Notes: generated from the letters alone by a model not told the origin. A stretch of DNA of 64,000 bases from a bacterium (GCA_965213685.1 CBDBZY010000041.1:524778-588777), one strand, 5' to 3'; counted from the first letter of the stretch, positions 5,064-58,432 are shown. A program made the numbers and translations.

Positions 5064-5954
5064 TCAGTGTTGCTCTAATGATCCTACCCATACTTGCTGG
5101 GAATGCCCCCAAACATCCTCCCCTCCAGCCACAAGCAGTTCACCAGAGGGGAGTACTGCACAAGAGGGAGCCCACATTCCCACAGGAAGCTCTCCACACC
5201 TGCTCCATTTTTCCCCTTCTGCTTCATATCTGTAGAGCTCCTTTCTTTTCCCCCACCCTCCTACCAGTAGCAAGTGGTTCTGCAAGGCTAAGAGTGTGGG
5301 GCCACGTACTGGAGGGGATGGCAGTTCCTGCCATGTTGGGCCAGTGGTGGTATTGCGAGTTGCGTTTGATATGAGGGTGGGGAGGTGGGCAGAGAACATG
5401 TGAGGCCGACCACCACTCCAGTGATATGATGAGATGTATACGTAATCACTAATGATGACTGCTGTCATGCGGTGACCCCCCATAGACAGTGGCTGTGCAC
5501 TGTACCACTGGTGAGTGGAGCAGTCCAGGACTTCTACTGTGTCCTTGTTGGGGTACCCACATGCCACAATGAGGTATTGCTGGTAGCCCACAGCAGCTGA
5601 CCATGCTCTACCATTTGGCATTCTTGGGTAGTGCTGAGTATTCCAGCGGTGACCCTCACTGTCCCATGATTGGATAGCAGTGCTGCCTTCCTCACCACCA
5701 GCTAGTAATAGCTGGTCCTTGACTGATGCCATGGAAAACCAGTGCTCAGTGCTCTTTGGCAGCTGAGACCATTCACCAGTGGTAGAGTTGTATTGCACTA
5801 TGACATACTCATTGCTGCCCTCCTTAGCAAACCCACCTCCAATGTGGACATGTCCCTTCAGTAATACAGTTTGGGCACACAAGACTCCAAAGGGCAAGTC
5901 CTTTCCTCTCCTCCATTTGAGTGGGAGGGGCCATCTCAGTGGCTGGACCTGGGG
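5064..5954 (-). CDS. Kelch beta-propeller terminal exon (copy 1)
   Basis: Acceptor tag|CCCCAG, open to stop. Kelch motifs IGGG, LAGG, LVGG, VAGG. Confidence 0.9.
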   Translation of the reverse strand, partial: PQVQPLRWPLPLKWRRGKDLPFGVLCAQTVLLKGHVHIGGGFAKEGSNEYVIVQYNSTTGEWSQLPKSTEHWFSMASVKDQLLLAGGEEGSTAIQSWDSEGHRWNTQHYPRMPNGRAWSAAVGYQQYLIVACGYPNKDTVEVLDCSTHQWYSAQPLSMGGHRMTAVIISDYVYISSYHWSGGRPHMFSAHLPTLISNATRNTTTGPTWQELPSPPVRGPTLLALQNHLLLVGGWGKRKELYRYEAEGEKWSRCGELPVGMWAPSCAVLPSGELLVAGGEDVWGHSQQVWVGSLEQH

Positions 5955-8042
5955 CTATAATGAGGTGAATGATGGCAGGGAGGGAGAGAGGGAGGGAAGG
6001 AGGGAGGAGGGAGGAGGGAGAGAGGAGGGAGAGGAGATAGGGAGAGAGGAAGAGAGAGAGGCGTAAATGAGAGGAGGGGGTATAGGGGAGGTAGAGACAC
6101 CAGGGGAGGGGAGGGAAGGAGAGGGGAGGGGGAGGGGAAAGGGAGGGGGAGGGGGAGGGGAAAGGGAGGGGGAGGGGGAGGGGAAGGGGGTGGGGGAAGG
6201 GGGGGGAGAGGAAGGGGAGAGGGGGTGGGGAGGGGAGGCAGGGAGGGGGAAGGGGAGGAGGGGAGGGGGAAAGGGAGGGAGGGGGAAGGGGAGGGGAAGA
6301 GGGGGAGGAGGGAGGGATGAGAGGAGGGGTGGGAGGGATGGGTGGAGGGGAGGGTGGAATGAGGAGGAATGGAGGGTGAGAGGGGGGGAAGAGGACAGAA
6401 TAACCACAGCTCACAGATTTTGGTTTGGCTGGAGATGTCTTGTATACTGCAGAATTCTTGGTTGTCTGCAAAGAAAGGAAAGAGATCGAGGTGGAGTGAG
6501 GCATGCAAGAATAGAGAATGCTAATCTGCTTTGTCCTCCTTTCCTCTCTTCCTTGCTTTGTTCTTTTTTGCTTCCCCTCGCTATCATTTGCACTTGGAGC
6601 ATTACCTGCACATCAGCTTGCAGTGGTCCTTGAGGGGTCATCTGAGAGTGACCTTTTGGGCTGGGACTGAGCCTAGGGGGAGTCTGGAGGAGACAGGTTT
6701 GCTGTGTTTAGTTCATGACAAGAGATTACTAATCACTACAACAACTTTGTGATATGCACCAATCCTATCAGTTTCCTGCAAAGAATCAGTACTGAGAACT
6801 CTAATACTAGAGTCAGTAGCATGATAACCAGTACATGAATTGATCTCCTCTACTTATAAAAATCATGCATATAACAATACTCACCAACACTTGCTTGCTC
6901 AGCCGTTCAACCTCTGCCTTGAGGGACTGATTCTCCTGTGTCAGTTGTTGATTCTCCATGACCAGTTGTGTGTTTTTCTTCTCCACTGATGCAATCTGAT
7001 CATTCTTCTCCTGTTCTTTTGACTCCATTTCTCGTTGCAGTGTTCCAATGTGCTGGTTCTTGTGTGACTCAATCTGCTGGGTTTGTTTCTTCACTGTCTG
7101 CACCAACACCAACCTGTCCATGTGGCATTCTGCATCATCGATCTCACCCCTGGCCCGCTCCAGTAGTTGCACCACCTGATGGATTGAGGGCCGATCCTCT
7201 GGAAAGCTTTTGAGGGATTGCTTGATCATCTGCACAAGAGGATGGTCATCACAGAACTGGCTGTAGATCTTCTGCATGTACTCCGCTCGCCGCTCCAGCT
7301 CATCTCGAAAAACATGCCTTCGGTGCTCATCTCGGTACACTTGTGCCAGAACCTTATGGGGGAAGCGTTGTGTGAGGGTGAAAATGGCCACCACACCCAG
7401 CGAGAAGATGTCGATCGTCATGTCGTATCGAGACTCGTCTTCCAGTGCCTCTGGGGGCATGTAGATAGACGCACCAGGTGCTTTGGTCATGGTGGCTACC
7501 TTCAGGCTGGGGACAATCCTAGCCATCCCAAGGTCCGCAATTTTGGCTCTCATGGCGGAGTTAAGGAGAACGTTCCTCGCTGAGAGATCCCGATGGATCA
7601 ACGGCGGAGAACGGCTGTGCAGGTAGCAGAGACCTTGAGCGACGTCGTAGAGGAACGAGTGCTTGAGGCTCAGGGGAATATCAGGCCGAGTCTCCAGCAG
7701 GTCGTGGAGGCTGGTCAGCAGTCGCTCCATCACCAGCGCAGGAAGTCGCGAGTCCGGCAGCACGCAGATGCCGAGAAAGAGGACGATGTGTGGGTGGCGG
7801 AGGGTGCTCATGAGTCGGCACTCCTCAACGAACTGGCCTGCCGCCCTCTCCATCTCAGCCTGCGGTATTTCGGAGCGGTCTTGGAAGATGTCGTGGATCT
7901 TCTTGATGGCGCAGACCGCTCCAGGTATCTCCCCCTCCTCCACGCTGCCGTAGGCTCCTGAGCCGATTCTTGTGCCGGTTAGTCGCACGTTTTGGAGCTG
8001 AAACGCCCTCAGCTCGGGGTAATCGCGAAGGAGATTCGCCAT
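5064..8042 (-). CDS. Kinase/coiled-coil/Kelch protein, copy 1 (4 exons, ~725 aa, intact)
   Basis: Exons 8042-6885, 6683-6606, 6465-6415 and 5954-5064, all phase 0 with GT-AG boundaries. Kinase motifs GSGAYG, AIKK, HRDLSARN, DLG, YMPPE, DIFSLG. About six Kelch blades with GG...Y...W pattern. Confidence 0.85.
6885..8042 (-). CDS. TKL-like protein kinase plus coiled-coil exon (copy 1)
   Basis: ORF 6813-8042 holds a complete kinase domain. Donor TTG|gtgag at 6885. Confidence 0.92.
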
Positions 8043-8344
8043 AATAATTGTCGAACGCTCTCTGTGAGAAAATGAACAAACAAGGGCTAGTGATTTATTC
8101 TAGTCACGTGAGGAGGTGAATACCAATAATTATGTTATAAATACCGATATCCAGGTAACCGCGTGCATATTGTTGTATGTATCACTGTGATATTCGTGTT
8201 CGTGTCACGGCTTTACAGCGCAGCGCTAGAGCCACACGTATTTCCGTGCACGCATGCGCGTCGTCTCATGGTGGTCCACTGAGGAGGTTCGTATGTAGAT
8301 GTTATGGAACTGCAGCAGTTCACTAGGGATTAGCCTGCATGAAC

Positions 8345-16188: not shown

Positions 16189-17145
16189 TTACTCTAATGA
16201 TCCTACCCACACTTGCTGGGAATACCTCACAACACCCTCCACCCCTCTGGTCACAAGCAGTTCTTGCTGGGAATACCTCTCAACACCCTCCACCTCCCCT
16301 CCAGCTACAAGCAGTTCACCAGAGGGGAGTACTGCACAAGAGGGAGCATACATTCTCACAGGAAGCTCACCACACTTGCTCCATTTTTTCTCTTCTTCCT
16401 CATATCTGTAGAGCTCCTTTCTCTTCTCTGACCCTCCTACCTCCCTCCCTCCTACCAGTAGCAAGTGGTTCTGCAGGGCTAAGAGTGTGGGGCCACCTAC
16501 TGGAGGGGATGGCAGTTCCTGCCATGTTGGGTCAGTGATGGTGTTGCGAGTTGCATTTGATATCAGGGCGGGGAGGTGGGCGGAGAACACGTGAGGCTGA
16601 CCATCTCTCCAGACATATGATGAGATGTATACGTAATCACTAATGATGACTGCTGTCATGTGCTGACCCCTCACAGGAACTGGCTGTGCACTGTACCACT
16701 GGCGAGTGGAGCAGTCCAGGACTTCTACTGTGTCCTTGTAGGGGAACCCACATGCCACAATGAGGTATTGCTGGTAGCCCACAGCAGCTGACCATGCTCT
16801 ACCAGTGGGCATTCTTGGGTAGTGCTGAGTATTCCAAGGATGACCCTCACTGTCCCATAATTGGATAACAGTGCTGCCTTCCCAACCACCAGCTAGTAAT
16901 AGCTGGTCCTTGACTGATGCCATGGCAAACCAGCACACTGTGCTCTCTGGCAGCTGAGACCACTCACCAGTGGTAGAGTTGTATTGCACTACGACATACT
17001 CATTGCTGCCCCGCTCAGCATTCCCACTCCCAATGTGGACCTGTCCCTTCAGTAATGTAGTTTGGGCAAAGCGGATTCCAAAGGGTAAGTCCTTTCCTCT
17101 CCTCCATTTGAGTGGGAGGGGCCATCTCAGTGGCTGGACCTGGGG
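16189..17145 (-). CDS. Kelch beta-propeller terminal exon (copy 2), open, with no kinase exon in its unit
   Basis: Acceptor cag|CCCCAG, 319 codons to stop. About 17-aa tandem duplication near the C-terminus. Confidence 0.8.
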   Translation of the reverse strand, partial: PQVQPLRWPLPLKWRRGKDLPFGIRFAQTTLLKGQVHIGSGNAERGSNEYVVVQYNSTTGEWSQLPESTVCWFAMASVKDQLLLAGGWEGSTVIQLWDSEGHPWNTQHYPRMPTGRAWSAAVGYQQYLIVACGFPYKDTVEVLDCSTRQWYSAQPVPVRGQHMTAVIISDYVYISSYVWRDGQPHVFSAHLPALISNATRNTITDPTWQELPSPPVGGPTLLALQNHLLLVGGREVGGSEKRKELYRYEEEEKKWSKCGELPVRMYAPSCAVLPSGELLVAGGEVEGVERYSQQELLVTRGVEGVVRYSQQVWVGSLE

Positions 17146-36069: not shown

Positions 36070-39000
36070 CTGTAATGAGGTGAATGATGCAGGGAGGGAG
36101 GGAGGGAGAGAGAGAGAGAGAGAGAAGGAGGGGGGAGGGGGAAGGGGGGAGGAGGGAGGGAGAGGGAGGAAGACAGAAGGAATGATGTAAGAACAGTGGC
36201 ATGGAGGGAAGGTGAAAGAGAGTAGAAGTGAGGAAAGGAATAATTAATTTTGTTATACTTTGATCTCGACACAATTCTTTTGATATATCCCTTTAGCTCC
36301 AAGTGTGTGCTGCATGCTACCGCTGTGGAGGGAGCCACGCCGCCAGGGACTGCCGGTACCGTGACAGCATTTGTAACTTCTGTCACAAGAAGGGGTACAT
36401 TCAACATGTGTGCAAAACTCGCCTCCGCCAACAGCGGCAGTCAGCACCCGAGCAGACTCCGCCGCTGCAGGTGGGAGGCCAACAGCAGCATCACACCCAC
36501 AAAGTTGATAGCAAGGCCCCGCCTACAACCACATCTGCCTCATCAACACCTCCTGCACAGCCTTGGACAGTGGACTGCAACATGTTCTTGGTGGAGGCAG
36601 ACAGAGTGGCATCTGTCAAAGCCACAGTTACTACTGATGGTGCCCAGCTGCAGATGGATGTTGACACTGGTGCTGCACTCTTCCTCATCAGCAAAGCCAC
36701 ATACTCCAAGCTGTGGCCAGCTGGCCGAGGCCCCCAGCTAATAAAACCTGCTATCAGACTCCAGACATACACAGGGGAGGAACTAAAGCTTGTTGGGGAG
36801 GCATCCGGTTGGGTCCAATACCAGAGCCAACAGAAGGACCTCAGCCTTGTGGTGGTGAAAGGAACGGGCCCCAGCCTCCTAGGCCGTGATTGGCTGAGCA
36901 AGGTCCGGCTAAACTAGGCCAAAATCCACTCACTGACTACACCACACACACCACCTTAGACCAGGTGCTCACCAAGCACAGTGGCCTGTTCAAGGCGGAG
37001 CTTGGCACGATCAAGGGTGTTGCCGCCAAGTTGCACATCAACCATGATGCCAACCTTGTTTTTACTGCCCCTGCTCTGTCCTGTATGCACTCCGATTAGT
37101 GTAGTTATAGTTAACTATAACTAAAACTAAAATATATTTTAGTAGCATCAAAACAACTATTGTAGCAAAACTAGAACTAGAATTTACAGTTTGCTGGAAT
37201 TGGTGTAACTAAATCTAGAATCGTTATAACCTTCCGCAAGAAAACTAAAACTAAAATTATTGTACCAGTAGATACTAGTATCGTCCGCGCATTAAGCGCG
37301 CGCGCACCCGAAATCGAAGATGTCATTATAGCGCACGTGATCTGCCTCGTGCACTCAACTCATGATCATTTGTGCAGTATAGTATATCATACACGAAGTT
37401 GCAAGCCAGTGAACTGAGTTCCGAGCACGGGTATTAGGCAAGTATAGGGATCTAGCACGTGTTTGAGAATGTTGTCGTCTGACTCCGAGTCCGAAGGTGC
37501 CGGTGTGGCAGCTACCCCCGTATCCTCACGAAGCTTCAGTACATCTCCTTCTCCATCTACAAGTGGAAGAGGTTCTGTTGGGCGTCCTCGCAAAAGCTTA
37601 GTGTGGGACTATTTCACGTACGATTTCAGCAGCAACAAGAGTATATGTCAAGTTAGTTCCGAGTCTCACAGTGATGCTGAAGCCACGAGTCCCATCAGTG
37701 TTTGTGGCCATCGTATTACCGGTAAATTCACCACAAACTTAAGGAGTCATCTGAAGAAAAGCCACACAAATTGCTATAAAGAATTAGTGACAAAAGAAGA
37801 GAGTGCAAAGGAGGAGGAATTGAGAGGGAAGACTAAAGCTGACAAGGGACGTGCTGGGCCTGTGAAGCAATCGACATTGATGGAAGTCATGCAACGAAAG
37901 TATGACAAGACCAGCAGTCGGTGGCAAGACATTACACGCAAGATGGCCATGTTTATTGCCACTAGTAATGTCCCTAATGCAGTTGTGGAGAATGCTGAAT
38001 TTCGGCTTTTGATGGAAACCTTGGATCCTCGCTATCAAACACCAAGTCGAGCAAGGATGGCAAAAGAAATGGATCTACTGATGGCTGATATGAAGGGTAG
38101 AATCAAGGTTTTCCTTGACTCCGCACAGAAGGTATCTGCGTGTACAGATATCTGGACAAAGCGTGGCATGACATCATCGTACCTTGGAGTGACCGCCCAT
38201 TTCTTTTCCAGACATGATCATCGACGTCACTGTGTGACACTTGCAGTACGTGTCTTTCCTCATCCCCATACAGCTGACAGAATTCGAAGTTTGTTAGACG
38301 AAGTCCTCAAGGAATGGGATGTTGACCAGAAGTTCTATTTTGTCATCACAGACAGCGGAAGTAATATGGTCAAAGCTTTTCGGAGTGATGTATTGGCATC
38401 TATCACAGATTACAGTGAAGGGTCAATGGATGAAGATGTTGGTGAAGCGAACAGTGGTGATGATGCAGAAGATGAAGATGAAGATTTTGATGTGGATGAG
38501 GATAATGACTTTGACACCAAAGAAATGCAACATGACATAGTATTTTCACAGTGTGGCAAGCGACTTGCTTGTTTTGCTCATAGCCTTCAGCTAGTTGTCC
38601 AGAAGTTCAAAGATGATTCACTTAAACCTCTCATGAAGAAGGTTTACGCTCTTGTTAAGAAAGTCAACAAGTCATCAAGAGCTACAGGAATTCTGTTGTC
38701 CTTGTGTAACAAAAAGCTGGTTACCAATGTTCCAACTCGATGGAGCTCAACATTTCTGTTGTTAGATCGGCTACTTGATGTGAAGGGTCCACTAAGCACT
38801 GCTTTGGATCAGCTAGAGTGGGACAATCTGGCTCACAGTGAGTGGAAAACTATCGAGATGGTACACAAGCTATTGAAGCCCTTTGCACAGTATACTGCTC
38901 TAATATCAGGAGAAGAGTATACAACTCTGTCAAGTGTCATTCCTATCCTGATGGAGCTGCAACTGCACCTACAGGATATGGTGCAAGTCCCAGAAGTTGC

Positions 39001-42000
39001 TTCAGTAGCCACCACTCTACGATCAGAGTTGAATCGACGATTTCGTAAGTACACAGATCCTGGAGATGAAGATTTTGAGCCAATCTATGTTGTGTCCACC
39101 CTCCTCGATCCACGGTACAAACCACTGATCAATGCAGTACAGATGAAATCAGGAAAAGATGAACTGCTAAGAATGCTCAAAGTCAATGACTTAGACAGCC
39201 AAAGCTCAAGTCAGTCTTCTCCCATCCAGTCTTCTCCCACCCCCTTACCCGAAGAAGAAAGTCCAGTCAAGAAACGTCAACGTTTCAGCTACCTGTCGAA
39301 AGTTCTTGAGGAAAAGTTGCGACAAGGAAAAGAGAAAGCAGCTCGTGAGCCTCATGGAAAACAAGAGCTTGAACGATACTTAGACAGCGTGCCTTCCCTT
39401 GGTGATGATGATGACCCTCTGGTTTTTTGGGTGGAACAGAAGGATGCGTATCCATTACTTTCTACCCTGGCTGCAGATATCATGTGTGCCCCTGCATCAT
39501 CAGCTGCTGTGGAGCGAATATTTTCAACAGCCGGGGAAGCCACAACTGGAAAACGCAATAAGTTAACTCACAAGAACCTTGAACGAGAAGTTCTGATCCG
39601 TAGAAACAAAGAATATATGTATACTTAATGTTTGTGGCTACTGTGTATTACATGCATTCATGCATTTTTTATATGAATATTTCTGTTTTTTGTTGTAATA
39701 ACCGAACCTTTCCATTCAGTAATTAAATAGTTCTCATGTTTAGAAGTATCTGGGAGTAAATTGATTCATTATGAAATTACTTGAACTAAAAGTAGAACTT
39801 ACCTCAGTTTTAGTAAGTAGCACCACAACTAAAATTGAATGCTCCTGATTTACTAAAGCTAAAACTAAAAATTCAAGCATTAGCTAAGAAATACCAAAAC
39901 TAAAACTAAAATGACATTGAAATGCTAATGTGTTACTGCAACTAAAACCAAATAAAAGCAACTAACTAAAACAACACTAACTCCGATCAAGGGTCAATCA
40001 AGCCCTGGAGAGGCTGGAGGCAGCTGGCGTCATCGAGCTATTGCTTTTTCTGAGTGGGCAGCACCCATTGTTCTGGTTGTCAAATGTGATGGTTCCATAT
40101 GAGTTTGTGGCTACTACAAACTGAATCAGGCTGCACACATTGATGCTTACCCCCTTCCCCTTGTGGATGATCTGTTTGCCTCTCTGGCTGGGGGACAAGT
40201 GTTCAGCAAGCTAGACCTTGCCCATGCGTATCAACAACTGCACGTCGACAAAGAGTCCCGCCAGTATGTCGCAATCAACACTCAAAAGGGGTTATTCCAA
40301 TACATCCGTCTACCTTTTGGAGTGGCTGCTGCACCAGCCATTTTTCAGTGCACTATCGAGTTGATTCTGAGAGGACTCCCTCACGTGTGCGTGTATCTTG
40401 ATGACATATTGGTGACAGGAGAGTCAAAGGCAGCACACATCCGCAACTTAAGTGCTGTACTGGAACGTCTGGAGTCTGTGGGTGTTCACCTTAAACGTGA
40501 GAAGTGCGCATTCATGCTCCTAGAGGTCAAGTACCTTGGTCATCGGATATCTGCGAAAGGACTCCAATAGGCCCTGGCACAATTTGCTCGAAAATTTGCC
40601 CAAATGTCTTTTCTTTTTTTCCCACATCTCTTCCCTAAATTTCCCACAGATCATCCTATATTTTCTGACCTAGTGGTGAACTCTCCATCACACATAAGAC
40701 AAACATCATACATATATACATTGTAAAAAGTGAAAAATATGATACTTTATTCATTATTGTTGCACTGCATCATTACTGAAAGTTCTTCCATGGCAAATTC
40801 CTGGCTAGTGTAAAACCTGTTGTTTGAAAGGAAGAATTGTAAATGCACACGTGAGTAGTTGATGAGTCATCTAGTTGATACTTGGTGTGTACAGAGAAAA
40901 CAGTAAGGACCAATCCTTGCTGAAAATTTCTTCAGTTTTTACTGAAACTTCCCAGCAAGGTAGCGCATATATCTTGATTGCTAGAGCCTACCCATTTTTC
41001 CAAAAAATGCCAAGCAATTTGTGCCAGGGCCTAGACTTCAACCCCTGGCAAGCAAGGTCAGGGAGGGCATCCTGGCATCTGCCAAATGAAGAGGCTGCAT
41101 GGCACAAGGGTACATGTATGTCTGGTGGCCAGGGATGGACAATGGAGTTAGCCGTGAGGCATTGTGCCAAGTGCCAAGAGCACCAGAAACTCCCGCCTAA
41201 AGCCCCAATGCACCCCTGGGAGTGGCCAGACCGTCCTTGGGCCTGTGTACACATTGACTATGCTGGGCCCATCCAGGGGAAGATGATTCTGGTGATGGTG
41301 GACACTCACTCTAAGCGGCCAGAGGCACTCTTAGTATCCTCAGCCACTTCTCAGTCCACAATCGAGAAGCTAAGGATAGTCTTTGTCACACACGGTTTAC
41401 CGGAGGTGTTGGTCTGACAATGGGCCAGCTTTCACAAGTATGGAGTTCCGGCTACCTTCACTGAATCCAATGGAATTAAACACCTCACGAGTCCCCCACA
41501 CCATCCGGCCTCGAATGGATTAGCTGAGAGGGCAGTCTAGACAATCAAGACAGCCATCAGGAAAGGTGATAGAGGAGTCAACCTGGAAACCCAGATATCG
41601 AGGTTCCTTTTCCAATATTGCCTAACACCATATTCCACCACAGGTGCAACCCCTGCGGAGTTGTTGATGGGAAGACAGCTTCACTCGAGACTAGACCTGC
41701 TACATCCAGACGTGTCATGTCGAGTTTGTGCTAATCAAGAAAGACAGAAAACGCACCATGACCTTCACTCCTGCCAATGAACCTTCGACGTTGGTGACCC
41801 AGTTTCAGTAAAGAACCAGGGAACTGGCCCACCGTGGCTACCAGGGAAGAGCAGCGAAGTTGTCAGTCCACAGCGCTTCATTGTGCAACTGGCTGATGGT
41901 CGTTGTACTGACCGCCATGTTGACCATGTGAAACGGCGAGTTCTCCAGCCTGAGGGCTGATATGGACATTAGCCAGCCAGACCAGTACACACTGGATGAT

Positions 42001-44686
42001 GATGATCCTCAGTCGAATGTGCCAGACAACTGTCTGCATACTGGTGTGACTCCTACCTGGCAGCCCCCAGGGAGTGAAGCCTCAACAGAGCTACGTAGAT
42101 CAACTTGTGACCGTCACCCTCCCTCTCCCCAATCGTCTTATGTGAACTGGACAGTTATGTATGTTGGCTCTAAAACCATTGTATTAGCACCGTGTATGTG
42201 TCATTTAGGAGAGAGGAGACATGGTATCTTTCATATCACTATGTCATATGTAAATTGTGCATTGTGTATTGCGTGATTACTTGTGGTTGCTTAATTGTAT
42301 CGTCCCTTAAGTCTATTCATTGCTCTGTACATTTTGTCAGTCCATGTATCAGTTGAGTAGCTTACACAGAGTGAGGCTCGGTCTACCCAATACAGGACTA
42401 GTAGTAGCCGTGGTGTTTAGTTCGTTTGTAGGACCAGTGTGAGGATGAACTCCCTAGGTCACTACAGGGCACTCTGCATGTTTCACCACCACACCCAAAC
42501 TTAGCTAGTTGAAAACAGTCTCTACATGCTTCAGTTTAGTTTTGATGCTATTTTAGTCACCACTAGCAAGCCCCGTTGAACGTTGTGAGTATATATCCCT
42601 GTACACACATCGTGCCAAAGGAATGTTTGGAATGTCATTACTACTTGTACATACACATAGGCATAACATACACAGGCTTTTTCATGGAGGGTACAGTGGC
42701 TAAAATGCCATCGAAACTAAACAGAACCACTGTTTTCAACAGGTTACCATCGGGGCAAACTGGTGGTGAACTTGTCTGCTATACATTCTTGATGGCACAC
42801 ATGACCATAATAATTTGACCTTTTGACCCTGTCGAACCACCTCTGGGGTGGAATGAGGAGGAGTAGAGGGTGAGAGGGAGAGAGGGAGAACAGGAGAATA
42901 GCTACAGCTCACAGATCTTGGTGTGGCTGGAGATGTCTTGTACACTGCAGAATTCTTGCTTGCCTAATAAGGGCAATAAAGAAGTGGACAAAAGAAGAGA
43001 ATGAATGCTAATCTGCTTTGTCCTCCTTTCCTCTCTTCCTTGCTTTGTTCCTCTTTGCTTTCCCTCACTATCTTTTGCACTTGGAGCATTACCTGCACAT
43101 CAGCTTGCAGTGGTCCTTGAGGGGTCATCTGAGAGTCACCTTTTGGGCTGGGACTGGGCCTAGGGGGAGTCTGGAAGAGACAGGTTTGCTGCGTTTAGTT
43201 CACTTCAGTTTAGAGAATTACTAAGAATTAAGATACTGCGTAAGAGAATTAAAGATACTGTGTAAGAGAATTAAGATACTACATTTAGTTCATTTCAAGA
43301 GGACCACTAATTACTACATGAACTGAGCGATATGTGCCAATCCTGTCTGCTTCCTAAAGTTGATACTGAGGAGTCCATTACTGGAATCGATACCTCATGA
43401 CTACAATAGGGAGTTGAATCTCCTATACTTAGTATTACATGTATAATCATTCATGCAGACATACACATTATTATGCCATTGCTCACCAACACTTGCTTCC
43501 TAAGCCGTTCAACCTCTGCCTTTAAAGACTGATTCTCCTGTGTCATTCGATGGTTCTCCTGTGTCAGTCGATGATTCTCCTGTGTCAGTTGACGAATCTC
43601 TTGTTTGTTTATCTTCTCCACTGATGCAATCTGATCATTCTTCTCCTGTCCTTGTGACTGCATTTGCTGTTGCAGTGCTCTGATGTGCTGGTTCTTGGAG
43701 AGAATCTGCAGCTCATGTGACTGAATCTGCTGGTTTTGCTCCTTCACTGTCTGCACCAACACCAATCTGTCCATGTGACATTCTGCATCACTGATCTCAC
43801 CCCTGGCCCGCTCCAGTAGCTGCACAACCTGATGGATTGAGGGCCGATCCTCCGGAAAGCTTTTGAGGCATCGCTTGATCATCTGCACAAGAGGATGGCC
43901 ATCACAGAACTGTCTGTAGATCTTTTGCATGTACTCCGCTCGCCGCTCCAGCTCATCTCGAATAACCTGCCTTCGGTGCTCATCTCGGTACACTTGTGCC
44001 AGAACCTTATGGGGGAAGCATTGTGTGAGGGTGAAAATGGCCACCACACCCAGTGAGAAGATGTCGATTGTCATGTCGTATCGAGACTCATCTTCCAGTG
44101 CCTCTGGGGGCATGTAGATGGACGCACCAGGTGCTTTGGTCATGGTGGCTACCCTCAGGCTGGGGACAATCCTAGCCACCCCAAGGTCAGCAATTTTGGC
44201 TGTCATGGCGGAGTTCAAGAGAACGTTCCTCGCGGAAAGGTCCCGATGGATCAACGGCGGAGAACGACTGTGCAGGTAGCAGAGACCTTGAGCGACGTCG
44301 TAGAGGAACGAGTGCTTGAGGCCCAGGGGGATATCGGGCCGAGTCTCCAGTAGGTCGTGGAGGCTGGTCAGCAGTCGCTCCATCACCAGCGCAGGAAGCC
44401 GCGAGCCCGGCAGCACGCAGATGCCGAGAAAGAGGACGATGTGTGGGTGGCGGAGGGTGCTCATGAGTCGGCACTCCTCAACGAACTGGCCTGCCGCCCT
44501 CTCCATCTCAGCCTGCGGTATTTCGGAGCGGTCTTGGAAGATGTCGTGGATCTTCTTGATGGTGCAAACCGCTCCAGGTATCTCCCCCTCCTCCACGCTG
44601 CCGTAGGCTCCTGAGCCGATTCTTGTGCCAGTTAGTCGCACGTTTTGAAGCTGAAACGCCCTGAGCTCGCGAAGGAGATTCGCCAT
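35179..44686 (-). CDS. Kinase/coiled-coil/Kelch protein, copy 3 (4 exons, ~739 aa, intact, 6.8-kb TE-filled intron)
   Basis: Exons 44686-43487, 43170-43093, 42963-42913 and 36069-35179, all phase 0 with GT-AG boundaries and open. Confidence 0.82.
37097..39979 (+). mobile_element. Full-length hAT transposon
   Basis: 8-bp TSD actccgat (37089-37096 and 39980-39987). TIR tagtgtagtt / aacaacacta. Subterminal aactaa repeats. Confidence 0.95.
37469..39628 (+). CDS. hAT transposase (BED zinc finger, DDE, hATC dimerisation; ZBED-like)
   Basis: 719-aa intact ORF. VWDYF..C..C..TTNLRSHLKKSH, TDIWT, ITDSGSN, CFAH, TRWSS, PASSAAVERIFS. Confidence 0.95.
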   Translation: MLSSDSESEGAGVAATPVSSRSFSTSPSPSTSGRGSVGRPRKSLVWDYFTYDFSSNKSICQVSSESHSDAEATSPISVCGHRITGKFTTNLRSHLKKSHTNCYKELVTKEESAKEEELRGKTKADKGRAGPVKQSTLMEVMQRKYDKTSSRWQDITRKMAMFIATSNVPNAVVENAEFRLLMETLDPRYQTPSRARMAKEMDLLMADMKGRIKVFLDSAQKVSACTDIWTKRGMTSSYLGVTAHFFSRHDHRRHCVTLAVRVFPHPHTADRIRSLLDEVLKEWDVDQKFYFVITDSGSNMVKAFRSDVLASITDYSEGSMDEDVGEANSGDDAEDEDEDFDVDEDNDFDTKEMQHDIVFSQCGKRLACFAHSLQLVVQKFKDDSLKPLMKKVYALVKKVNKSSRATGILLSLCNKKLVTNVPTRWSSTFLLLDRLLDVKGPLSTALDQLEWDNLAHSEWKTIEMVHKLLKPFAQYTALISGEEYTTLSSVIPILMELQLHLQDMVQVPEVASVATTLRSELNRRFRKYTDPGDEDFEPIYVVSTLLDPRYKPLINAVQMKSGKDELLRMLKVNDLDSQSSSQSSPIQSSPTPLPEEESPVKKRQRFSYLSKVLEEKLRQGKEKAAREPHGKQELERYLDSVPSLGDDDDPLVFWVEQKDAYPLLSTLAADIMCAPASSAAVERIFSTAGEATTGKRNKLTHKNLEREVLIRRNKEYMYT
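40568..41033. mobile_element. hAT-type MITE
   Basis: TIR taggccctggcacaa. TSD gactccaa/gacttcaa. Confidence 0.85.
43487..44686 (-). CDS. TKL-like protein kinase plus coiled-coil exon (copy 3)
   Basis: ORF 43451-44716. GSGAYG, HRDLSARN, DLG, YMPPE. Confidence 0.92.
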
Positions 44687-45509
44687 ATTGCTCTCTGTGA
44701 GAAAATGAACCAGCAAGGGCCAGTGGGTGGGGCTGGTTTATTCTTGTCACGTGAGGAACGCAAGTATGACGTCACCAAGTATGAATGTATGCGCATTGTG
44801 GTGTATAGGCGCGTGCGTATTGTGTTGAATCTCGTATCACTGTGATATTGGTGTTTTGTCATTTTGCATTACAATGCCTCGGCTTTCAGTTATTCACATG
44901 ATTATAACTCTCACTAGTGCAGCGCCCTCGTCTCATGGTCGTCCACTGAGGAGGTTCGTATGTAGATATTATGGAACTGCAGCACTGAGTTCTCTAGGGA
45001 TTCTCTAGGGAGTAGCCTGCACGAACTAATGGTGAGAGAGAGCGTACGCGTTCCTTATGCAACTGTGCCCAATAATAGCAGCTATTACTCGGCATAACAA
45101 GGACGGCACTCTCTCACCGCTGTTTCAGGATATTCTGTGGAGTCTCAATGTAGGACCAGATGTCTGTGTTGGGAATATTAATAATTATAAATTATACGTG
45201 TAAACAATCAATAATCACCTTCTGCTTGCAGCAATTCCCCCCCCCCCCCCCCCCCCCCCAAGACGTGGATGCGCCGACACATATAATGATGTCTGTGTTA
45301 TATACATGTATGTACACAGCATATTTAAAAGAGGCAGTGTCCTCATGCACGTGACGCTGGTCTATACATGCAGTATGCACCTTGACCACAGAGCTTCCCT
45401 TGCTCACACCAATAGTGATGTAGGGAGATGTAATGAGAATTTGCTTTCTTAACTTTGTAAATAATCATGATGAAATGGACCAGGCATGCAACTTACCTTT
45501 AGATCTGTG

Positions 45510-51004: not shown

Positions 51005-52229
51005 GGAAGGCCCTGGCCAGTTGGTAGCAGCTTTCTGCCTGCATGGCCTCCACGTCAGTGCCATGGAATGAGTGGAGAGCTAAGTGCTGCACCATACCAT
51101 AGTCCTGGGAGGGAGGGAGGGAGGGAGGCAGCAATGTACAGTGCACCTACACTGTATATACGTATACACTGTATATACATGTACATGTACATGTATATAC
51201 ATGTACACAGGTATACAGCTGTAGTATCTCTTGTAAGCAATACAAAATGATACAGAAGGAAGGGGAGGAGGTGAGTAATGTACAGTGAACCTACATCTGT
51301 ACATGTACTGTACATGAAGCCTTTCCTCATGTACATGTACATGTACATGTACATGGAGGTACAGTATACATGTACATGTCATGTACACTGTAAATGTACA
51401 TGCACATGTAATACAAAATGCTACAGGAGGGAGGGGAGGAGGTGGGAGACCTTCTTGAAGAAGAAGTGGTTGGCCAGGTGATTGAGGACCATGGGATTGG
51501 AGGAGTCGATTGTGTAGGCCTTTGAGAGAAGCTCAACACCTTTCTTGATGGAGTCATGCTGGGAGGGAGGGGGGGGCGGAAGGAGGTGGGGAGGGGGGGA
51601 AGGGAGGGAGGGAGAAATGGGGAGAGGGAGGAGTGGGGGGAGGGAGAGACGAGGGAGGGAGGGAGGGAGGGAGGGAGGGAGGAAGGAATGGAGGGAGGAA
51701 GGGAGGGAGAGAGGGAGGGAGGGAGGGGTGAAACGGAGTGGGGGAGAGAGAAGGAGAAAGGATGGAAGGGGGAGAGAGGGAGGTGTCCTCACAGTTCCAC
51801 TTACCTGTTTGCTGTTCAGCTCCAGAATAGCCATGCCCACCAGAGCACCCACACAGTGATAGTCCAGCTCCAGACACCGGTGGAACGCCATCCTGTGGGA
51901 GAGGTACAGTACATGTACACATGTACAGTACAACTCATGTGTCCCCATAAAGATTCAGACAGTGGTCATGGGACAGTTGTGTCTGCATAATACTGTTCAC
52001 CTCGCCTTCTCCAGATTTCCGAGCTTTACAAAACACAGTCCCATTCCCAATCTGACAGCACCTGGAACAGATTGACAACACATTCTTACATATACATGTA
52101 CATGTATTAATCAGTTAATGAGACGAGGCAAAGCAAAGCAACTACACCCGAAGACAACTCCCTTTCTCTCTAGAGAAAAAAATTGAGCTACCTCAGGCAG
52201 GATTCGAACATGTACATGTACATGAACAA

Positions 52230-53380
52230 TCACGTGCATAGTGCACCACAACTTGAAAGAAAGAAAGAAAAGAACAGAGAAGAAAGAAAGAAGAATCACA
52301 CACTATAAAATAGACAACAACCTCAACGGCTTAGAAAAAAATATATATATATATATTTTTTTTTAAAGAACAAAGCAACAAGCCTACACATATAAAAATA
52401 AACTCAGAATGAAAGGCAGATGGTCCACATGCCCAACCTTGAGAGCTGGGAATGGGGCTTAAAGATCTTTGATGGTGCACCAACTCTCACCACCCATGTG
52501 GACCATCTACCATCCATACACAAGACGCACAAACACAGAGCACAATCCTAAAAACCAGGCACAAGCAACAGCTCACCTTCTAGCTAAAAACAATTCAAAA
52601 AATGATGTGCAGCTGTATATTCGCTTAGATATAGTACATAGTACGAGAGTAGTGATCACATGATAGTGTGGTCATGTTGACTGACCACACCCCTATCTCC
52701 AGTATCTACATGTCTACATAGGTCATGTCTTACTTCCAGTGGAATGCAAATCCCTTCTAATACTTGCCTCTTCATACTCACACCATACTTACTGAACAAA
52801 TTTATATGTTTTCTAGCAAACTTCTTAAAATATGCACACAATTTGTCATACAAGAAACCTTGAGCTATCAATCTTCTGGTAAGTAACTTATGGCTAGCAC
52901 AAAAGGTGTCATATGTATCACATATTCTACTAATCCGTACTAACTGAGAAAATGTACACCCCACATGTAGGATTGGCAGGTATATTACTAGACATAAACG
53001 GAAAGTTAATGATTTCAAAACTAAAATTGTCCCTTTTATAATACACTTCTGTTATGTATTTATTACCACATATGCTAATCAGAATGTCCGGGTACGACAC
53101 CCTATTGGCTGCTTCACTTGTTTTTTTAAGGCTCAATTCTTTAGGGTATATCTCACCAATTGCCGCATCAAACGTAGCATTATTTAGAGTAAGCAAATCA
53201 TCTATGTACCTCGATCACAGTATCACTAAACATTTTGGCTGCACACATGTTGTCCTTCATCAACTTCTTCATGTATAGGTATTCATAATGAAACAGAAAC
53301 AGATTGGCCAGTTGAGGTACACAATCTGTTCCCATGGGGATACCAACTGTTTGGCGATACACCTTATTACCCACTTTAAT
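52230..53380 (-). mobile_element. Penelope-type RT 3' remnant (probably Naiad-like) inside a CTR9 intron
   Basis: GIPMGTDCVPQLANLFL, YIDD, KRDNFSFEIINFPFMSSNIP, SQLVRISRIC. No C-terminal GIY-YIG. Frameshifted. Confidence 0.75.
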
Positions 53381-54101
53381 GTACATGTATGTACAGTGTA
53401 CATATACATACAATGTAGTACATGTACATGTACCTGGGCAGTTTGGGTTTGTCCTGAGAGCCTTCTTGTAGAAGACCAGAGCTCCCTTGTAGTCCTTCTT
53501 GTTGTAAGCAATGCACGCCTTACCGGATGTTCTCTGGGGACTGAGGGAGGGAGGGAGGGAGGGAGGGAGGGAGGGGGGGAAGTGTACATGTACATGTACA
53601 GTATGGGAGGTGGGTTCCTCTGGTGCCCCGACCGACTCTTTACTACTGAGTTATATATGAGTACATCAGGGGAGAGACACTGTTGCCTTCCATTGAAGAT
53701 TCAGCCTGTCCAGCTTTTCTAAGCTGCTGAGGTTGTTGGAGTTACCTACGTTTCTAAGCCCTTGAGGCTGTTTACTAAGCAATAAACTACATTATCTTTC
53801 TAAGCAACTGAGGATATTGTAAGATTTATGTGTGTGGTCTGGCTTTCTTTCTTCTTACGTTTCTTTTCCTGCAATTTGCAGTGCGCTATGCATATGATGT
53901 ACATGTACAATATTCAGATGTACATGTACATGTACTCTTTAACACATGTACATGTACATGTATTAAAGAGTACATGTATTAGGGTGTGCACGGTTACTGT
54001 GTTTGATGGTTAGGACAATTGTGATGAAGCTGAGTTGCTGACTGGGTTTTGAACGTAAACCTTAGGATAGTACCATCAATCCTGCACTCCTCTGCCACCA
54101 G

Positions 54102-54175
54102 AGACCCAGTGGCTCAGTGGTAAGTGTCTGACTAGTATTCAGAAGGTCCTGGGTTCAAATCCCAGCTGGGTCCAG
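54102..54175 (+). mobile_element. tRNA-derived SINE or pseudo-tRNA (AGT anticodon-like loop)
   Basis: gtggctcagtggtaa...ctgactagtattcag...gggttcaaatccc. Confidence 0.55.
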
Positions 54176-57100
54176 ATTTTTTTCAGGACTCCTTCAGCAG
54201 CTCAGCGTGACGTAGAGAAACAGTTTGTGATTTGTTTGAGTTAAATCATGTATGTACATGTACATGTGGCAGCATGGAGTGACCTGCTGTAGGACAAAGG
54301 AGAACTGAGCGTCAGCCTGATCCATCTTGTCTCCCTCTAGCAGAGAGAAGTACGCGCGGCCCAGCAGATGGTTAGTGTCATACATGATGATCTTGTCAGC
54401 AGTTGTGTAGAGGAATGTCGCCTGTGAGGGAGGGAGGGAAGGAAAGAGGGAGGAAGAGAGGAAGGCAGGAGTGAAGGGAGGAAGGGAAGGAGAGAGAAAG
54501 AGGCAGAAAAAGAGGGAGTGGTGGATGGAATAGGGGAGGAAGGGAGGTGAGGAGGGAGGAAGCACAGGAGGAGGGAGAGAGAAGGTAAAACGTGAGTAAA
54601 ATAAGAGCTGTTCCCAGCCCATGTGACCTCTGACCTGTGCAAAGAGCTCCTTCTTCTTCTCCCTGCTCTTCTCCCTCCTGGCCTGCTGGATCTGGTAGGC
54701 TGCCAGAGTGTCCAGGACAGTCATCTGGTCCTTCTCACTGTCTGCATAGCTCATGTCTGCATCTGAAACAGAGATGATGGAGGGAGGGAGGGAGGGAGGG
54801 AGGGAGGGAGGGGAGGGAGCAAAGAGAAGAGAGGGAGGGAGAAAGGGAGGGAGGGAGGGAGGGAAGGAAAGTAGAAAAGGTGACCTGTACATACACCTAC
54901 ATACGGAGTGATATTGAGAATTGTGAAGGCTGGCTGTCACCCGGTGGCCATAGCTCAGGTGGTATTAGCCTCGTACCCAGTCTCTCCCACCGCACACACA
55001 CAATGATTGATGACCTTTGTACCCGGAAGGATACGCTGTGGGAGAGACCGGTACACGATGCCATTTTATTACACGAAGGGGTACAAAGGGGTAAAAAGAC
55101 CTGAAATTAGCGTGGGCAGAGTCACGGAATACTGCCTACGCATTACCAATAATGCCCACGTGCGCGGAGTAAGGGCGGTGCAACTCCACTTAGCTACTGC
55201 GGCCTGGGGGAGGCTAGGTTGTAGATCCAGGAGAAGAGGTTAGACAGTAGATCAAAAGACCAGAGTCTCTAAAGCTAGACTCTAGATCCGGAGGAAGGCA
55301 CGCTACATCTAGGTCTAGACCTCTACATGTACTGTAGATCCAGACTCTAGATCTAGGAGGAGACGTGCATGGCTACCGTTCCAGTAACTAACGAGTTCTT
55401 CTGATCACTGACCACTTCGAGATGCCTCCAATAGTCTGACAAACTCTTCATGTTTATTCTGCTTGTAGAAGTGGAGCTGATGGCAGAAGGGGAGGAGGAG
55501 GAGGAGGAGGAGGAGGAGGAGAAGGAGGAGGGAGAGGAGGAGGATTTCCCCACCTACCATAATTATAAGGTAGAGGGGGAGTACTCACAGCGAGGGCCAC
55601 CCATGTGTGCAGAGGAGCTCTCTCATCTCTGAGGATACTGATCACCTCATCTCCCTCTGGTAGCTGGTCAATGTCCAATTCAATCACCTGGACACAGGGA
55701 AAAGGCTGGCCATGTGCCCATGCACACACTTTACTGCTCCACATACTGCACTGCACACACAATACCAGAATGCCCACACATGCATGCACACATGTACATG
55801 TATACGTGCATGTGGTTTTGTCGAAAGCTATAGTGTGCATTGAATAGAACTAGCGTCCTTCCCTCCCTCACACACGCAGAATGAAGCTCTCTGCAGGCTC
55901 ACCTCGTCCGTGTCCCTGAGAGGAATCTCTATGGAGGACGCACCAGGTACGTACCGCGTGGCCATCTCCACTCGCTGCCGCAGGAGAGAGGGAGCAGAGG
56001 CTGGAGCGATGGAGTGCAGTGAGCGTGAGGTGCTTCTATTTAGAGCACATGGGCGGAGTTAGTGGTCCAGCTGTGTCTACATCATAACATGTTCGTTATG
56101 TATTATGCGTGTACGTCGGAGCAGCAAAGAACGTGTCTCAGTTGGTTTGACCTGTTTGTTGACCGGGCAAGGGCTAGGAACTACTTTACTTCCATCATGC
56201 TTGATCTTATCACGCAGGAGTGCAGGTAATTCTTAACACGTGATCCCTCACTACACGTACATGACATTGTTCACGAGACTAGACATTGTACATGTGTAGG
56301 GCTGAGAGACGTATATTTCTAAGCTGTTGTTTGTGTTCTTTCCTTTCTTAATTCTTCTTTCTTTCTATTTATAGTGCTTATACATGTACATGTACATGTA
56401 TATGTGATTTTTCATGTACTTCTCTTTCTGTTTTTTTCCCTCCCTCCTCCCCTCATCTGTCCTTCAACTTCGTTATTCCTTTCCCCCTCCTCCCCCTCTC
56501 TCCCTCTCTCCCTCTCTCCCTCTCTCCCTCTCTCCCTCTCTCCCTCTCTCCCTCCCTCCCTCTCTTCTGCAGAGTTGGCACTGGAGGAGACAGCACAGGG
56601 CACTAAATACTCACAGAACTGTCAGTGCCATCAAAGCCATCCTGTGAGACATGCACTGCAGTCAGAGATAGTTGACAATTGCTGCATGTCTTCATCATGT
56701 AGTCACTCCATCCCCCTCTCCTCTTCCTCCTCCTCCTCCTCCTCCTCCTCCTCCTCCTTTTCTTCCTAATTAATCCTCTCTCCTCCTCCTCTTCCTAATA
56801 ATTAACCTTCCCCTATCCTCCTCCTCTTCTTCCTCTTCTTCCTCCTCCTCCTCTTCCAGATTTCTCTATCACTCACTCTCCCCCTCCCTCCTTCATGCTC
56901 TCTCTCATATCATTATTGCTGTATTCATCAGTCCAAACACGTGATGTTGCAATCATTCTTATGTTCTGAACAAACTGCTTTTAATCAAAAAATTATTTTT
57001 ACAAAGATCACAATGCATTAACACAACACACAGAATATCGGCTAGTGTTGGAATGAGTGTATAGGGATAATAATATATACACCAACACTTCATTACGAAA

Positions 57101-57529
57101 AATGTGATTTCAATTGTTCCACTATACAAAGTTTTCATGTTACATAACGTATGCATGTAAACCAGAATCATACTTATACAATCATGTAATTATAGCAGCT
57201 ATTTTCACAAACGTTGGGTATAATTAAGCCAACACACATAATAACAGGTTGTAATGTGCTTTCTTTTCTATAGTAGTATTAACCAAAATGTACAACATAA
57301 CGTCTAATCTCACATAACACAATGTATACATGTACATGTAAACCGCAAGACACATATTTGGGGATGTAATTAAGACAACACACATAATAGCAGGTTATAG
57401 GAGTGAAGTAACATGTAATGCATAGTAGCATACAGATTATTAAATGTAAAATCAAATCACTGAAGTAATTAGTGGTAGTTCACATGTACAGTTGTGCACA
57501 GTGAGGTGTTATCAGAGAAGCAATCAGTG

Positions 57530-58432
57530 TTACTCTAATGATCCTACCCACACTTGCTGGGAATACCTCCCAACACCCTCCACAATCCCCCCAGCCACAA
57601 GCAGTTCACCAGAGGGGAGTACTGCACAAGAGTGAGCATACATTCCCACAGGAAGCTCTCCACACTTGCTCCATTTCTTCCCTTCTGCCTCATATCTGTA
57701 GAGCTCCTTTCTCACCCCCGACCCTTTTACCTTACTCCCTCCTACCAGTAGCAAGTGGTTCTGCAGGGCTAAGAGTGTGGGGCCACCTACTGGAGGGGAT
57801 GGCAGTTCCTGCCATGTTGGGCCAGTGGTGGTGTTGCGAGTTGCATTTGATATCAGGGTGGGGAGGTGGGCGGAGAACACGTGAGGCTGACCACCACTCC
57901 AGACATATGATGAAATGTATACGTAATCACTAATGATGACTGCTGTCATGGCCCTACCCCCCACAGGCACTGGCTGTGCACTGTACCACTGGTGGGTGGA
58001 GCAGTCCAGGACTTCTACTGTGTCCTTGTTGGGGTACCCACATGCCACAATGAGGTATTGCTGGTAGCGCACAGCAGCTGACCATGATCTACCAGTGGGC
58101 ATTCTTGGATAGTGCTGAGTATTCCAGCAATGACTCTCACTGTCCCATAATTGGATAGCAGTGCTGCCTCCCTCACCACCAGCTAGTAATAGCTGGTCCT
58201 TGACTGATGCCATGGCAAAGAAGCACTCAGTGCTCTTTGGCAGCTGAGACCACTTCCCCCTACTGGGGTCATACCTCATAACAATGTAGTCATTGTTGTC
58301 CTTCCTAGCCTGCCCATTAATGTAGACTTCTCCCTTCAGTGCTACTGTGTGGGCACACTGGACTCCAAAGGGCAAGTCCTTTCCTCTCCTCCATTTGAGT
58401 GGGAGGGGCCATCTCAGTGGCTGGACCTGGGG
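57530..58432 (-). CDS. Kelch beta-propeller terminal exon (copy 4); upstream exons extend beyond the window
   Basis: Acceptor cag|CCCCAG, open 301 codons. First blade is divergent. Confidence 0.88.
   Translation of the reverse strand, partial: PQVQPLRWPLPLKWRRGKDLPFGVQCAHTVALKGEVYINGQARKDNNDYIVMRYDPSRGKWSQLPKSTECFFAMASVKDQLLLAGGEGGSTAIQLWDSESHCWNTQHYPRMPTGRSWSAAVRYQQYLIVACGYPNKDTVEVLDCSTHQWYSAQPVPVGGRAMTAVIISDYVYISSYVWSGGQPHVFSAHLPTLISNATRNTTTGPTWQELPSPPVGGPTLLALQNHLLLVGGSKVKGSGVRKELYRYEAEGKKWSKCGELPVGMYAHSCAVLPSGELLVAGGIVEGVGRYSQQVWVGSLE

Follow-up and report, generated by a model that had tools for sequence, protein, structure and literature searches.

What kind of gene family holds a protein kinase almost constant while the propeller attached to it differs from copy to copy at a few positions per blade, and what is such a family doing in an assembly catalogued as a prokaryote? 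The question is raised by the window, a stretch of 64,000 nucleotides (C41:524,778-588,777) whose end coincides with the end of C41, a 589-kb contig of assembly GCA_965213685.1 (8 Mb in 71 contigs). From the sequence alone, the original prediction had described there a tandem family of kinase-Kelch genes in a birth-and-death array, in which a conserved kinase and an oligomerising coiled coil are fused to a Kelch propeller with a hypervariable face, and had likened it to an immune or self/non-self receptor system.

Diversifying selection on the Kelch propeller

The four Kelch exons that had been predicted in the window are present and open (Table 1), the outermost two ending at the limits given in the prediction (5064 and 58432), and three of them are 83-86% identical to the first (that of gene A), and all four match Kelch_1 (34-46 bits; cut-off 20.1) and Kelch_6 (41-52.5 bits; cut-off 25.3) in Pfam. 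The variable strings that had been read from them (GGEE/GGWE/GGLG/GGEG, CGYPN/CGFPY/CGYLY/CGYPN, HR/QH/DR/RA and others) are all visible in the alignment. By the Nei-Gojobori method, pairwise omega (dN/dS, the ratio of nonsynonymous to synonymous rates) ranges from 0.41 to 1.57 over 45 pairs of Kelch exons, and over six pairs from 0.32 to 0.42 for the whole kinase exon and from 0.19 to 0.39 for the kinase domain.

Codon models were fitted to ten Kelch exons with a purpose-written likelihood program (GY94 with F3x4, naive empirical Bayes posteriors). The single-ratio model M0 gave an lnL of -3098.75 with an omega of 1.34, and lnL rose from -3046.78 under M1a to -2950.53 under M2a (likelihood-ratio test, LRT, 2dlnL 192.5), which assigned an omega2 of 11.9 to 8.6% of sites; the comparison of M7 with M8 gave an LRT of 192.8. 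Seventeen sites have P(omega>1)>0.9, namely, in the numbering of gene A, residues 25, 26, 42, 46, 49, 71, 72, 88, 135, 161, 162, 178, 217, 234, 236 and 261 together with an insert after 278. Because the deep nodes of the tree are weak (bootstrap 21-41%) and the paralogs recombine, a star tree and a tree-free count were added. The star tree, with seven lineages, gave an LRT of 215.7 and an omega2 of 15.1, which places omega at 12-15 at about 8% of codons, the ratio at loop sites being the quantity on which the original prediction had chosen to be judged. In the tree-free count, for which 295 of 320 columns could be scored, 11 codons need at least four amino-acid replacements, against 0.94 expected with all codons neutral. 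At its foreground codons the sister pair K366/K582 has 19 nonsynonymous differences and 1 synonymous, and at all other codons 17 and 14. The kinase exon has an M0 omega of 0.42. Selection is purifying in the kinase and in the scaffold of the propeller. It is strongly diversifying at about 17-25 Kelch codons, of which every blade has one to three in its D-A loop and one to three in its B-C loop.

A mutational process aimed at these codons, whether local hypermutation or the insertion of templated patches, might imitate such a result. The 19 most variable codons do have a synonymous rate that is nominally raised (0.48, from 5 changes in 10.4 sites, versus 0.25 elsewhere), patches such as YPN and YLY are common to otherwise unrelated copies, and templated exchange does occur. 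The nonsynonymous rate at the same 19 codons is nevertheless 1.57, more than three times their synonymous rate, and in the two codons on each side of the hypervariable ones the synonymous rate is normal (0.21 versus 0.25 elsewhere), so that a regional mutation hot spot is unlikely and the process would need the precision of single codons. We know of no such targeted mechanism in animals outside lymphocyte-type systems, and we give this explanation hardly any credence.

The positions of the selected sites were then read from a structural model. From a 70-sequence alignment, AlphaFold2 models the Kelch domain of gene A as a six-blade propeller with 26 strands (predicted local distance difference test, pLDDT, 97; predicted template modelling score, pTM, 0.93), for which the top Foldseek matches are solved six-blade Kelch domains (NS1-BP, KEAP1 and KLHL; template modelling score, TM, 0.72-0.76; E 4e-19 at TM 0.75). 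A profile search against solved Kelch domains gave E-values down to 3e-41, and a search of the ESM Atlas returned generic Kelch clusters only. With residue classes set from the DSSP strand order before variability was viewed, 13 of the 17 selected sites fall strictly in D-A or B-C loops and 16 lie no more than two residues away from them, with none in the A-B or C-D loops (Fisher p=4e-4 and 1.4e-4). The ratio of nonsynonymous to synonymous differences per site (pN/pS) is 1.48 in the top loops (111 codons), 0.37 in the bottom loops, 0.76 in the strands and 0 in the termini. The substitutions thus cluster beyond chance, as had been claimed, and the variable sites are not spread evenly over the fold. 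They are rich in Tyr, Trp, Arg, Cys and Asp. In solved Kelch domains the D-A and B-C loops make up the ligand-binding face, and we consider it highly probable that diversifying selection acts on the binding face of this fused kinase-Kelch family.

The same positions vary in two further sets of relatives. Ten Kelch exons from other public assemblies have a mean of 5.25 distinct residues at 16 of these positions and 2.32 elsewhere (p=6e-7), and 23 unique Kelch regions of the demosponge Halichondria panicea, which are about 35% identical, have 4.69 and 1.82, respectively (p=7e-9). The family has therefore long had a hypervariable face, which is not a quirk of one contig. This agreement also bears on a reading without adaptive meaning, in which duplicates decay, loops are relaxed and gene conversion homogenises the remainder into an apparent mosaic. 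Recombination among the copies is indeed significant, broken copies are frequent (three of 12 Kelch exons, one of five kinase exons) and omega over the whole Kelch exon is near 1. Neutral decay would nonetheless have to produce the omega and the count of replaced codons given above, to leave nine of 12 frames open at about 10% divergence with every indel in those nine a multiple of three, to conserve the bottom loops and the termini, and to vary the same sites in both sets of relatives. We regard it as very improbable.

Gene models, predicted proteins and host

The window holds two four-exon genes (A and B) and two Kelch exons without a kinase of their own (Table 1), so the tandem of kinase and Kelch that had been predicted stands for two of the four Kelch exons and fails for the other two, K541 and K582. 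Between K541 and the next Kelch exon upstream no kinase exon was found, and any kinase partner of K582 would sit past a long terminal repeat retrotransposon and the end of the contig. Four intact paralogs have kept the small exons 2 and 3 together with their splice sites. The kinase exons of genes A and B are 88% identical over the open reading frame (ORF), and with a dN of 0.021 in the kinase domain the two domains are almost identical, as had been stated. The fragment at 928..1071 is debris left by a partial duplication.

Table 1. Positions of the kinase-Kelch exons and associated elements in the window, counted from its first nucleotide.
Feature	Position	Strand	Evidence or remark
Orphan 3' piece of kinase/coiled-coil exon	928..1071	-	97% identical to 7049-6905
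Gene A exon 4, six-blade Kelch, 296 aa + stop	5064..5954	-	Pfam Kelch, AlphaFold2, Foldseek
Gene A exon 3, linker, 51 nt, phase 0	6415..6465	-	Splice sites and frame kept in 4 intact paralogs
Gene A exon 2, Pro/Ser-rich linker, 78 nt, phase 0	6606..6683	-	AG/GT splice sites and frame kept in 4 intact paralogs
Gene A exon 1, protein kinase domain and ~90-residue coiled coil, 386 aa	6885..8042	-	Pfam Pkinase 4.6e-37; GTGAGT donor at end
Candidate promoter E-box TCACGTGAC, gene A	8103..8111	-	Upstream of ATG; kept in paralog alignment
K541, kinase-less Kelch exon, 318 aa, open	16189..17145	-	Conserved acceptor; 22-codon internal duplication near C-terminus
Gene B exon 4 (K560), Kelch propeller, 296 aa	35179..36069	-	Pfam, alignment
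Gene B intron 3, 6.8 kb, transposon remains	36070..42912	-	Pfam matches, exon positions
Gene B exon 3, 51 nt	42913..42963	-	Paralog alignment
Gene B exon 2, 78 nt	43093..43170	-	Paralog alignment
Gene B exon 1, kinase and longer coiled coil, 400 aa	43487..44686	-	Pfam Pkinase 1.9e-36; alignments
E-box TCACGTGAC, second copy, upstream of gene B	44746..44754	-	Motif scan
K582, kinase-less Kelch exon, 300 aa, open frame	57530..58432	-	Alignment

Relatives support the joining of the two halves. A 1.8-kb public contig encodes a 582-aa protein (P0001; 52% identical) in one open frame that follows the kinase exon and the Kelch exon collinearly, RefSeq models of H. panicea proteins carry kinase and Kelch together, and elsewhere on C41 lies a distant paralog in which an intronless ORF of 691 aa runs from kinase through coiled coil to Kelch (C41:348487-350562, plus strand; L016:337-2412). 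The product of this ORF is probably a pseudokinase, because its HRD and DFG motifs read HRG and DFA. Two further distant kinase-Kelch pairs lie on contig C7, at 152-155 kb and 161-164 kb.

The E-box TCACGTGAC occurs exactly twice in the window, both times 61-69 nt upstream of a kinase start codon, where 0.26 occurrences are expected and four of 100 shuffles reach two, and it is conserved also in paralogs beyond the window. It has nine of the ten bases of the CLEAR element, bound by TFEB/MITF-type factors. In intron 1 of gene A (about 6745-6790, minus strand), a block of about 45 nt that follows an AG (GAAACTGATAGGATTGGTGCATATCAC) is kept in all five paralogs above the level of the surrounding intron and could represent either a micro-exon of 36 nt or an element involved in splicing. 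The duplication in K541 is an in-frame tandem repeat of the last-strand segment (GVERYSQQELLVTRGVEGVVRYSQQ).

Every catalytic motif is kept in the kinase, namely the Gly-rich loop GSGAYGS, CAIKK, HRDLSARN, DLG and PPE, and H150, R151, D152, N157, D170 and E198 do not vary across an alignment of 53 sequences, so the enzyme is active-looking. Only two solved chains match it at E<=1e-25, EGFR and the plant kinase CTR1, neither of them of the STE20 group, and because these are its closest solved relatives the kinase is assigned, as judged from sequence, as tyrosine kinase-like (TKL-like) or tyrosine-kinase-like rather than STE20. The RefSeq label of one H. panicea relative (XP_064407301, 'serine/threonine-protein kinase OSR1-like') had offered an OSR1/SPAK identity within STE20; this was rejected, since no OSR1_C (CCT) domain was matched by Pfam in the window exons or the examined relatives, the nearest chains are not STE20 and the label is an automatic best-match name. 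Other loci of that species are called TAO3-, MAP4K4- or TNIK-like or 'uncharacterized protein LOC1353520xx / LOC1353375xx', names that are equally automatic and inconsistent.

The coiled coil that had been expected to oligomerise is predicted to form a parallel dimer. Its modelled dimer scores 0.56 against 0.00 for the best control, where the mark used for this score is reached by 20 of 30 proteins solved as pairs and by one of 23 solved as single chains; the contacts are parallel and in register, at least 80% of them agree between runs, and the partner pLDDT is at least 83. The model supports a dimer and does not prove it. A simple hydropathy scan, made with no dedicated predictor, gave no sign of a membrane-spanning segment or a signal peptide. 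The hydropathy peak over 19 residues (1.86-2.02) lies inside the kinase core, where D, S, R and P interrupt the stretch, and the N-terminus (MANLLRDYPELRAF) is not hydrophobic. The encoded proteins accordingly look cytosolic. Pfam matched no BTB or BACK domain in any exon of the window or in the relatives P0143, P0262 and P0001, and no NACHT or NB-ARC domain and no RING, B-box or SPRY domain in the window exons, which leaves the coiled coil as the sole TRIM-like part.

The window is eukaryotic, on the evidence of its introns, microsatellites, long CT-rich tracts and retrotransposons. The assembly is a bin of mixed origin. The majority of its contigs, at about 65% G+C, look bacterial by composition alone, several long ones (C64, of 1.6 Mb, C18, C41, C16, C51 and C7) have 44-53%, and C41 is clearly eukaryotic. 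Relatives of the kinase or kinase-Kelch genes of C41 lie on C7, C64, C4 and C57, and C16, C18 and C51 were placed with the eukaryote-like contigs solely by their G+C and by repeats that they have in common with the flanks of the window. None of this mixture is visible in the stated completeness and contamination values of the assembly. The host is probably an animal, a sponge or something close to one, because the only named relatives of the kinase-Kelch genes are those of H. panicea.

In the annotation of that sponge, kinase-Kelch loci number well over 40; most of them lie on two large scaffolds, with runs of consecutive locus numbers. They resemble the genes described here in their order of kinase, short coiled coil and six-blade Kelch, in a Kelch domain that starts 'L(K/T)WRRGKD' and in having their greatest variability in the homologous loops; they differ in about 120 extra N-terminal residues and, at some loci, in a non-kinase N-terminal part. 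The extra residues (P0291, P0307 and others) look death-fold-like by eye and have no Pfam match. In some isoforms the kinase is replaced by an unrelated part of about 470 aa, also without a Pfam match, with the Kelch exon unchanged; no match to this module was found in the examined part of the present genome.

The array and its surplus of Kelch exons

The array on C41 is a tandem, transposon-laden, birth-and-death cluster. Besides 12 close Kelch exons (72-100% identical by tblastn), nine of them with an open frame, it has four kinase exons that are intact, a broken one and two fragments of the coiled coil. Among the Kelch copies K522 and K117 are clearly dead, and a 7-kb segment with an entire gene is duplicated at 98% identity. 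Pseudogenes, fragments, recent duplicates and transposon insertions together bear out the birth-and-death character that had been proposed. Along the gene strand, one to four Kelch exons come after each kinase exon.

In each kinase-less unit the Kelch exon is preceded by about 1.5 kb of family-specific intron and followed by a 3' flank of about 1 kb, and the splice acceptor is kept in all of them. Background and foreground pN/pS are 0.55 and 2.4 in the kinase-less Kelch exons and 0.50 and 2.0 in the kinase-linked ones, and this match places both under the same selection, now or until recently. The conserved block of 1.3-1.6 kb upstream of the kinase-less Kelch exons was considered as an alternative first exon or as a transposon that carries them. 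On this contig it adjoins Kelch copies only, no convincing open frame was found in it, and the idea of a mobile element was rejected; a promoter role could not be shown.

The paralogs swap segments by recombination or gene conversion. In the pairwise homoplasy index (PHI) test the observed value was lower than in every one of 2000 permutations, and of the pairs of informative sites 42% are incompatible. Distances in introns and exons disagree strongly (K448-K582, intron d=0.041 and exon dS=0.126; K246-K541, 0.159 and 0.067), a mismatch suggesting that exons may be exchanged independently of their flanks. A second use for the extra exons is suggested by H. panicea, where two isoforms of one locus (X3 and X4) have an identical N-terminal part of 473 aa and Kelch parts only 86% identical, and X3 and X5 have an identical Kelch part and differing N-terminal parts. 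These isoforms, which are predicted models that similar paralogs may confuse, would make the Kelch exons alternative terminal exons. The extra Kelch exons are probably alternative 3' terminal exons, donors for conversion or both, the donor role being compatible with the PHI result and with the mismatch of intron and exon distances.

Taken further, these observations would fit a germline cassette system of sponges, in which a few constant 5' modules (kinase and coiled coil, with other N-terminal modules in some species) are paired with a larger archive of hypervariable Kelch terminal exons, through the choice of alternative 3' exons, gene conversion or both, to give a combinatorial repertoire of dimeric recognition kinases. 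We offer this tentatively and hold it to be rather unlikely. If true, its outcome would be like that of exon choice in Dscam and the protocadherins or of the pseudo-V archive of chicken antibodies, here with a propeller and a kinase and in one of the earliest-branching animal phyla.

Other features lie between the exons. Intron 3 of gene B carries, on the plus strand, a hAT transposase (37448-39628) together with the reverse transcriptase (40103-40570) and gag-protease (36297-36917) of long terminal repeat retrotransposons, the remains spanning 36297-41417, and upstream of K582 lies a retrotransposon pol with reverse transcriptase and RNase H (60327-62791, minus strand). An ORF of 219 aa (18947-19606, minus strand) has a GIY-YIG-like motif, presumably of the kind found in Penelope-like elements; it has no Pfam match. 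The minus strand at about 49200-55000, between K582 and gene B, has exon-like pieces of ORF that contain tetratricopeptide repeats (Pfam TPR_1/TPR_2, 53198-53650). We take their source to be a gene similar to CTR9 of the Paf1 complex, of which Pfam confirms the repeats only, and it looks like a housekeeping gene embedded in the array. Low-complexity CT/GA-rich tracts occupy introns (5955-6410, 17146-18500, 21600-22330, 59350-59800, 63020-64000 and elsewhere) and yield spurious frames of 150-330 codons, which run 'PPSLPPSLP' on the strand rich in CT and are Gly/Glu/Arg-rich on the opposite one, so that proline-rich proteins might wrongly be called there, and (CA)n microsatellites lie at about 1650-1800 and about 13400.

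A candidate recognition kinase and its known parallels

As an overall reading we think it probable, short of real confidence, that these genes encode a family of cytosolic, dimeric recognition kinases in an arms race with a fast-changing ligand. The protein would run from a TKL-like kinase through a parallel dimeric coiled coil and a Pro/Ser-rich linker to a six-blade Kelch propeller, and the two propeller faces of the dimer would bind the rapidly changing ligand, most likely a protein or peptide motif that comes from a virus, a bacterial symbiont or a pathogen within the cell. Binding of the ligand by the dimer, or clustering on a multivalent ligand, could switch on the kinase by trans-phosphorylation; alternatively, the kinase might phosphorylate the bound target. 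The logic would be that of TRIM5 and the finTRIM proteins with a kinase in place of the RING domain. As for what is recognised, the balance tips slightly towards a role in non-self or immune recognition, a step taken by analogy.

Selection on a binding face is silent on the identity of the ligand, and the Kelch face might instead recruit endogenous targets in an internal conflict with transposons, selfish elements or fast-evolving host proteins, the kinase being an ordinary regulatory enzyme with a diversifying adaptor, as in the F-box and MATH-BTB families. The cluster is full of transposon insertions, and the Kelch domains of KLHL proteins are substrate adaptors (KLHL3-WNK, KEAP1-Nrf2). Nothing, however, ties the kinase-Kelch family to the control of transposons, and the variability of the same positions across distant sponges suits any long-lasting conflict equally well. 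We judge this reading unlikely.

Sponges also reject allografts, and the array could be an allorecognition system that tells self from conspecific sponges in the manner of the WD40 propellers of fungal HET-E and HET-D. Hypervariable positions on a propeller face combined with exchange among paralogs are what has been reported for het-d/het-e (PMC1805685), and the same pattern is seen here. The diversity found here, on the other hand, lies between paralogs, and the proteins look cytosolic, no signal peptide or membrane segment being apparent by inspection. To our knowledge, moreover, the cells of different sponge individuals share no cytoplasm, unlike fused hyphae, and we consider allorecognition quite improbable.

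Several points weigh against a cytosolic recognition kinase under an arms race. The codon models were self-implemented and are neither PAML nor HyPhy, recombination among paralogs inflates the LRTs (the tree-free count is safer evidence, as are the structure-defined classes), and three of the 17 sites adjoin indels, where the alignment is less sure. Background omega, at about 0.5, is not very strict, and the kinase exon has a weak M2a signal of its own (LRT 6.65, p=0.036, four sequences only). That the sites form one face follows from DSSP strand order and textbook propeller topology, not from measured distances. At the C41 locus the joining of kinase to Kelch is taken from splice sites and homologs, and K407, a kinase-linked copy beyond the window, has a 1-bp deletion that could be true decay or an assembly error. 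The sponge origin is drawn from the sole named relatives, 35% identical in the Kelch domain, and an immune function is argued by analogy only (TRIM5/finTRIM, fungal HET-E).

Sponges are packed with microbes, and how they discriminate partners from enemies is poorly understood, with attention given mostly to NLR, SRCR and TIR genes. If the recognition-kinase reading is true, early animals would gain a candidate sensor of a new type inside the cell, in which a hypervariable, peptide-binding propeller is coupled straight to a kinase, and the reading would mean that the TRIM-type design of enzyme, coiled coil and variable binder in a tandem array has arisen with kinase and Kelch. It would also offer handles for experiment: contact residues for mutation, a kinase read-out, and paralog baits against symbiont, viral and host proteins. 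The family is scattered in RefSeq under misleading automatic names and has sat unnoticed in eukaryotic contigs that contaminate bacterial bins. No description of a sponge kinase-Kelch family was found in the full-text literature covered, which leaves out subscription journals and supplements. A study of sponges challenged with microbe-associated molecular patterns lists differentially expressed transcripts described as 'Kelch motif containing', without further specification, and as Ser/Thr kinases, to which no link with this family could be made (PMC6208332). What appears to be new is that, in sponges, a kinase is combined with a Kelch face that is hypervariable, and that Kelch cassettes are in surplus; the principle of a conserved enzyme, a coiled coil and a hypervariable binder in a tandem array is already known.

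The nearest solved folds are those of the BTB-BACK-Kelch proteins, the CUL3 adaptors KEAP1, NS1-BP/IVNS1ABP and KLHL2/3/12/17/20, which likewise have six blades and bind peptides in their solved complexes, and KLHL-type Kelch domains bind through the D-A/B-C loop face. They differ in having BTB and BACK domains and a ubiquitin ligase partner where a kinase stands here, in an identity of only 14-20%, and in being conserved single genes rather than a hypervariable array. The expanded F-box and MATH-BTB adaptor families of nematodes and plants are large and tandem, with a positively selected substrate-binding domain and a conserved enzyme-recruiting domain, and differ from the kinase-Kelch family in their domains and in their output. 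Genes of the TRIM5alpha and fish finTRIM type, too, are diversified by duplication and positive selection, as one study reports (PMC2657112). In their products an enzyme module is followed by a coiled coil that dimerises and, at the C-terminus, by a binding domain, a likeness in logic and not in membership, since they use RING, B-box, B30.2/SPRY and ubiquitination where a kinase, a propeller and, as would-be output, phosphorylation are found here. In the fungal het-d/het-e WD40 propellers a few positions per repeat, on the interaction surface, are under positive diversifying selection and family members exchange sequence, according to two reports (PMC1805685, PMC2873952), and the two loop clusters per blade and the recombination described here resemble this pattern of the NLR-like HET-E/HET-D/HNWD proteins. 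In the fungal proteins, however, a WD40 domain is joined to a NACHT/HET N-terminus and its repeats are shuffled and variable in number, whereas in the kinase-Kelch array the unit is the whole six-blade Kelch exon.

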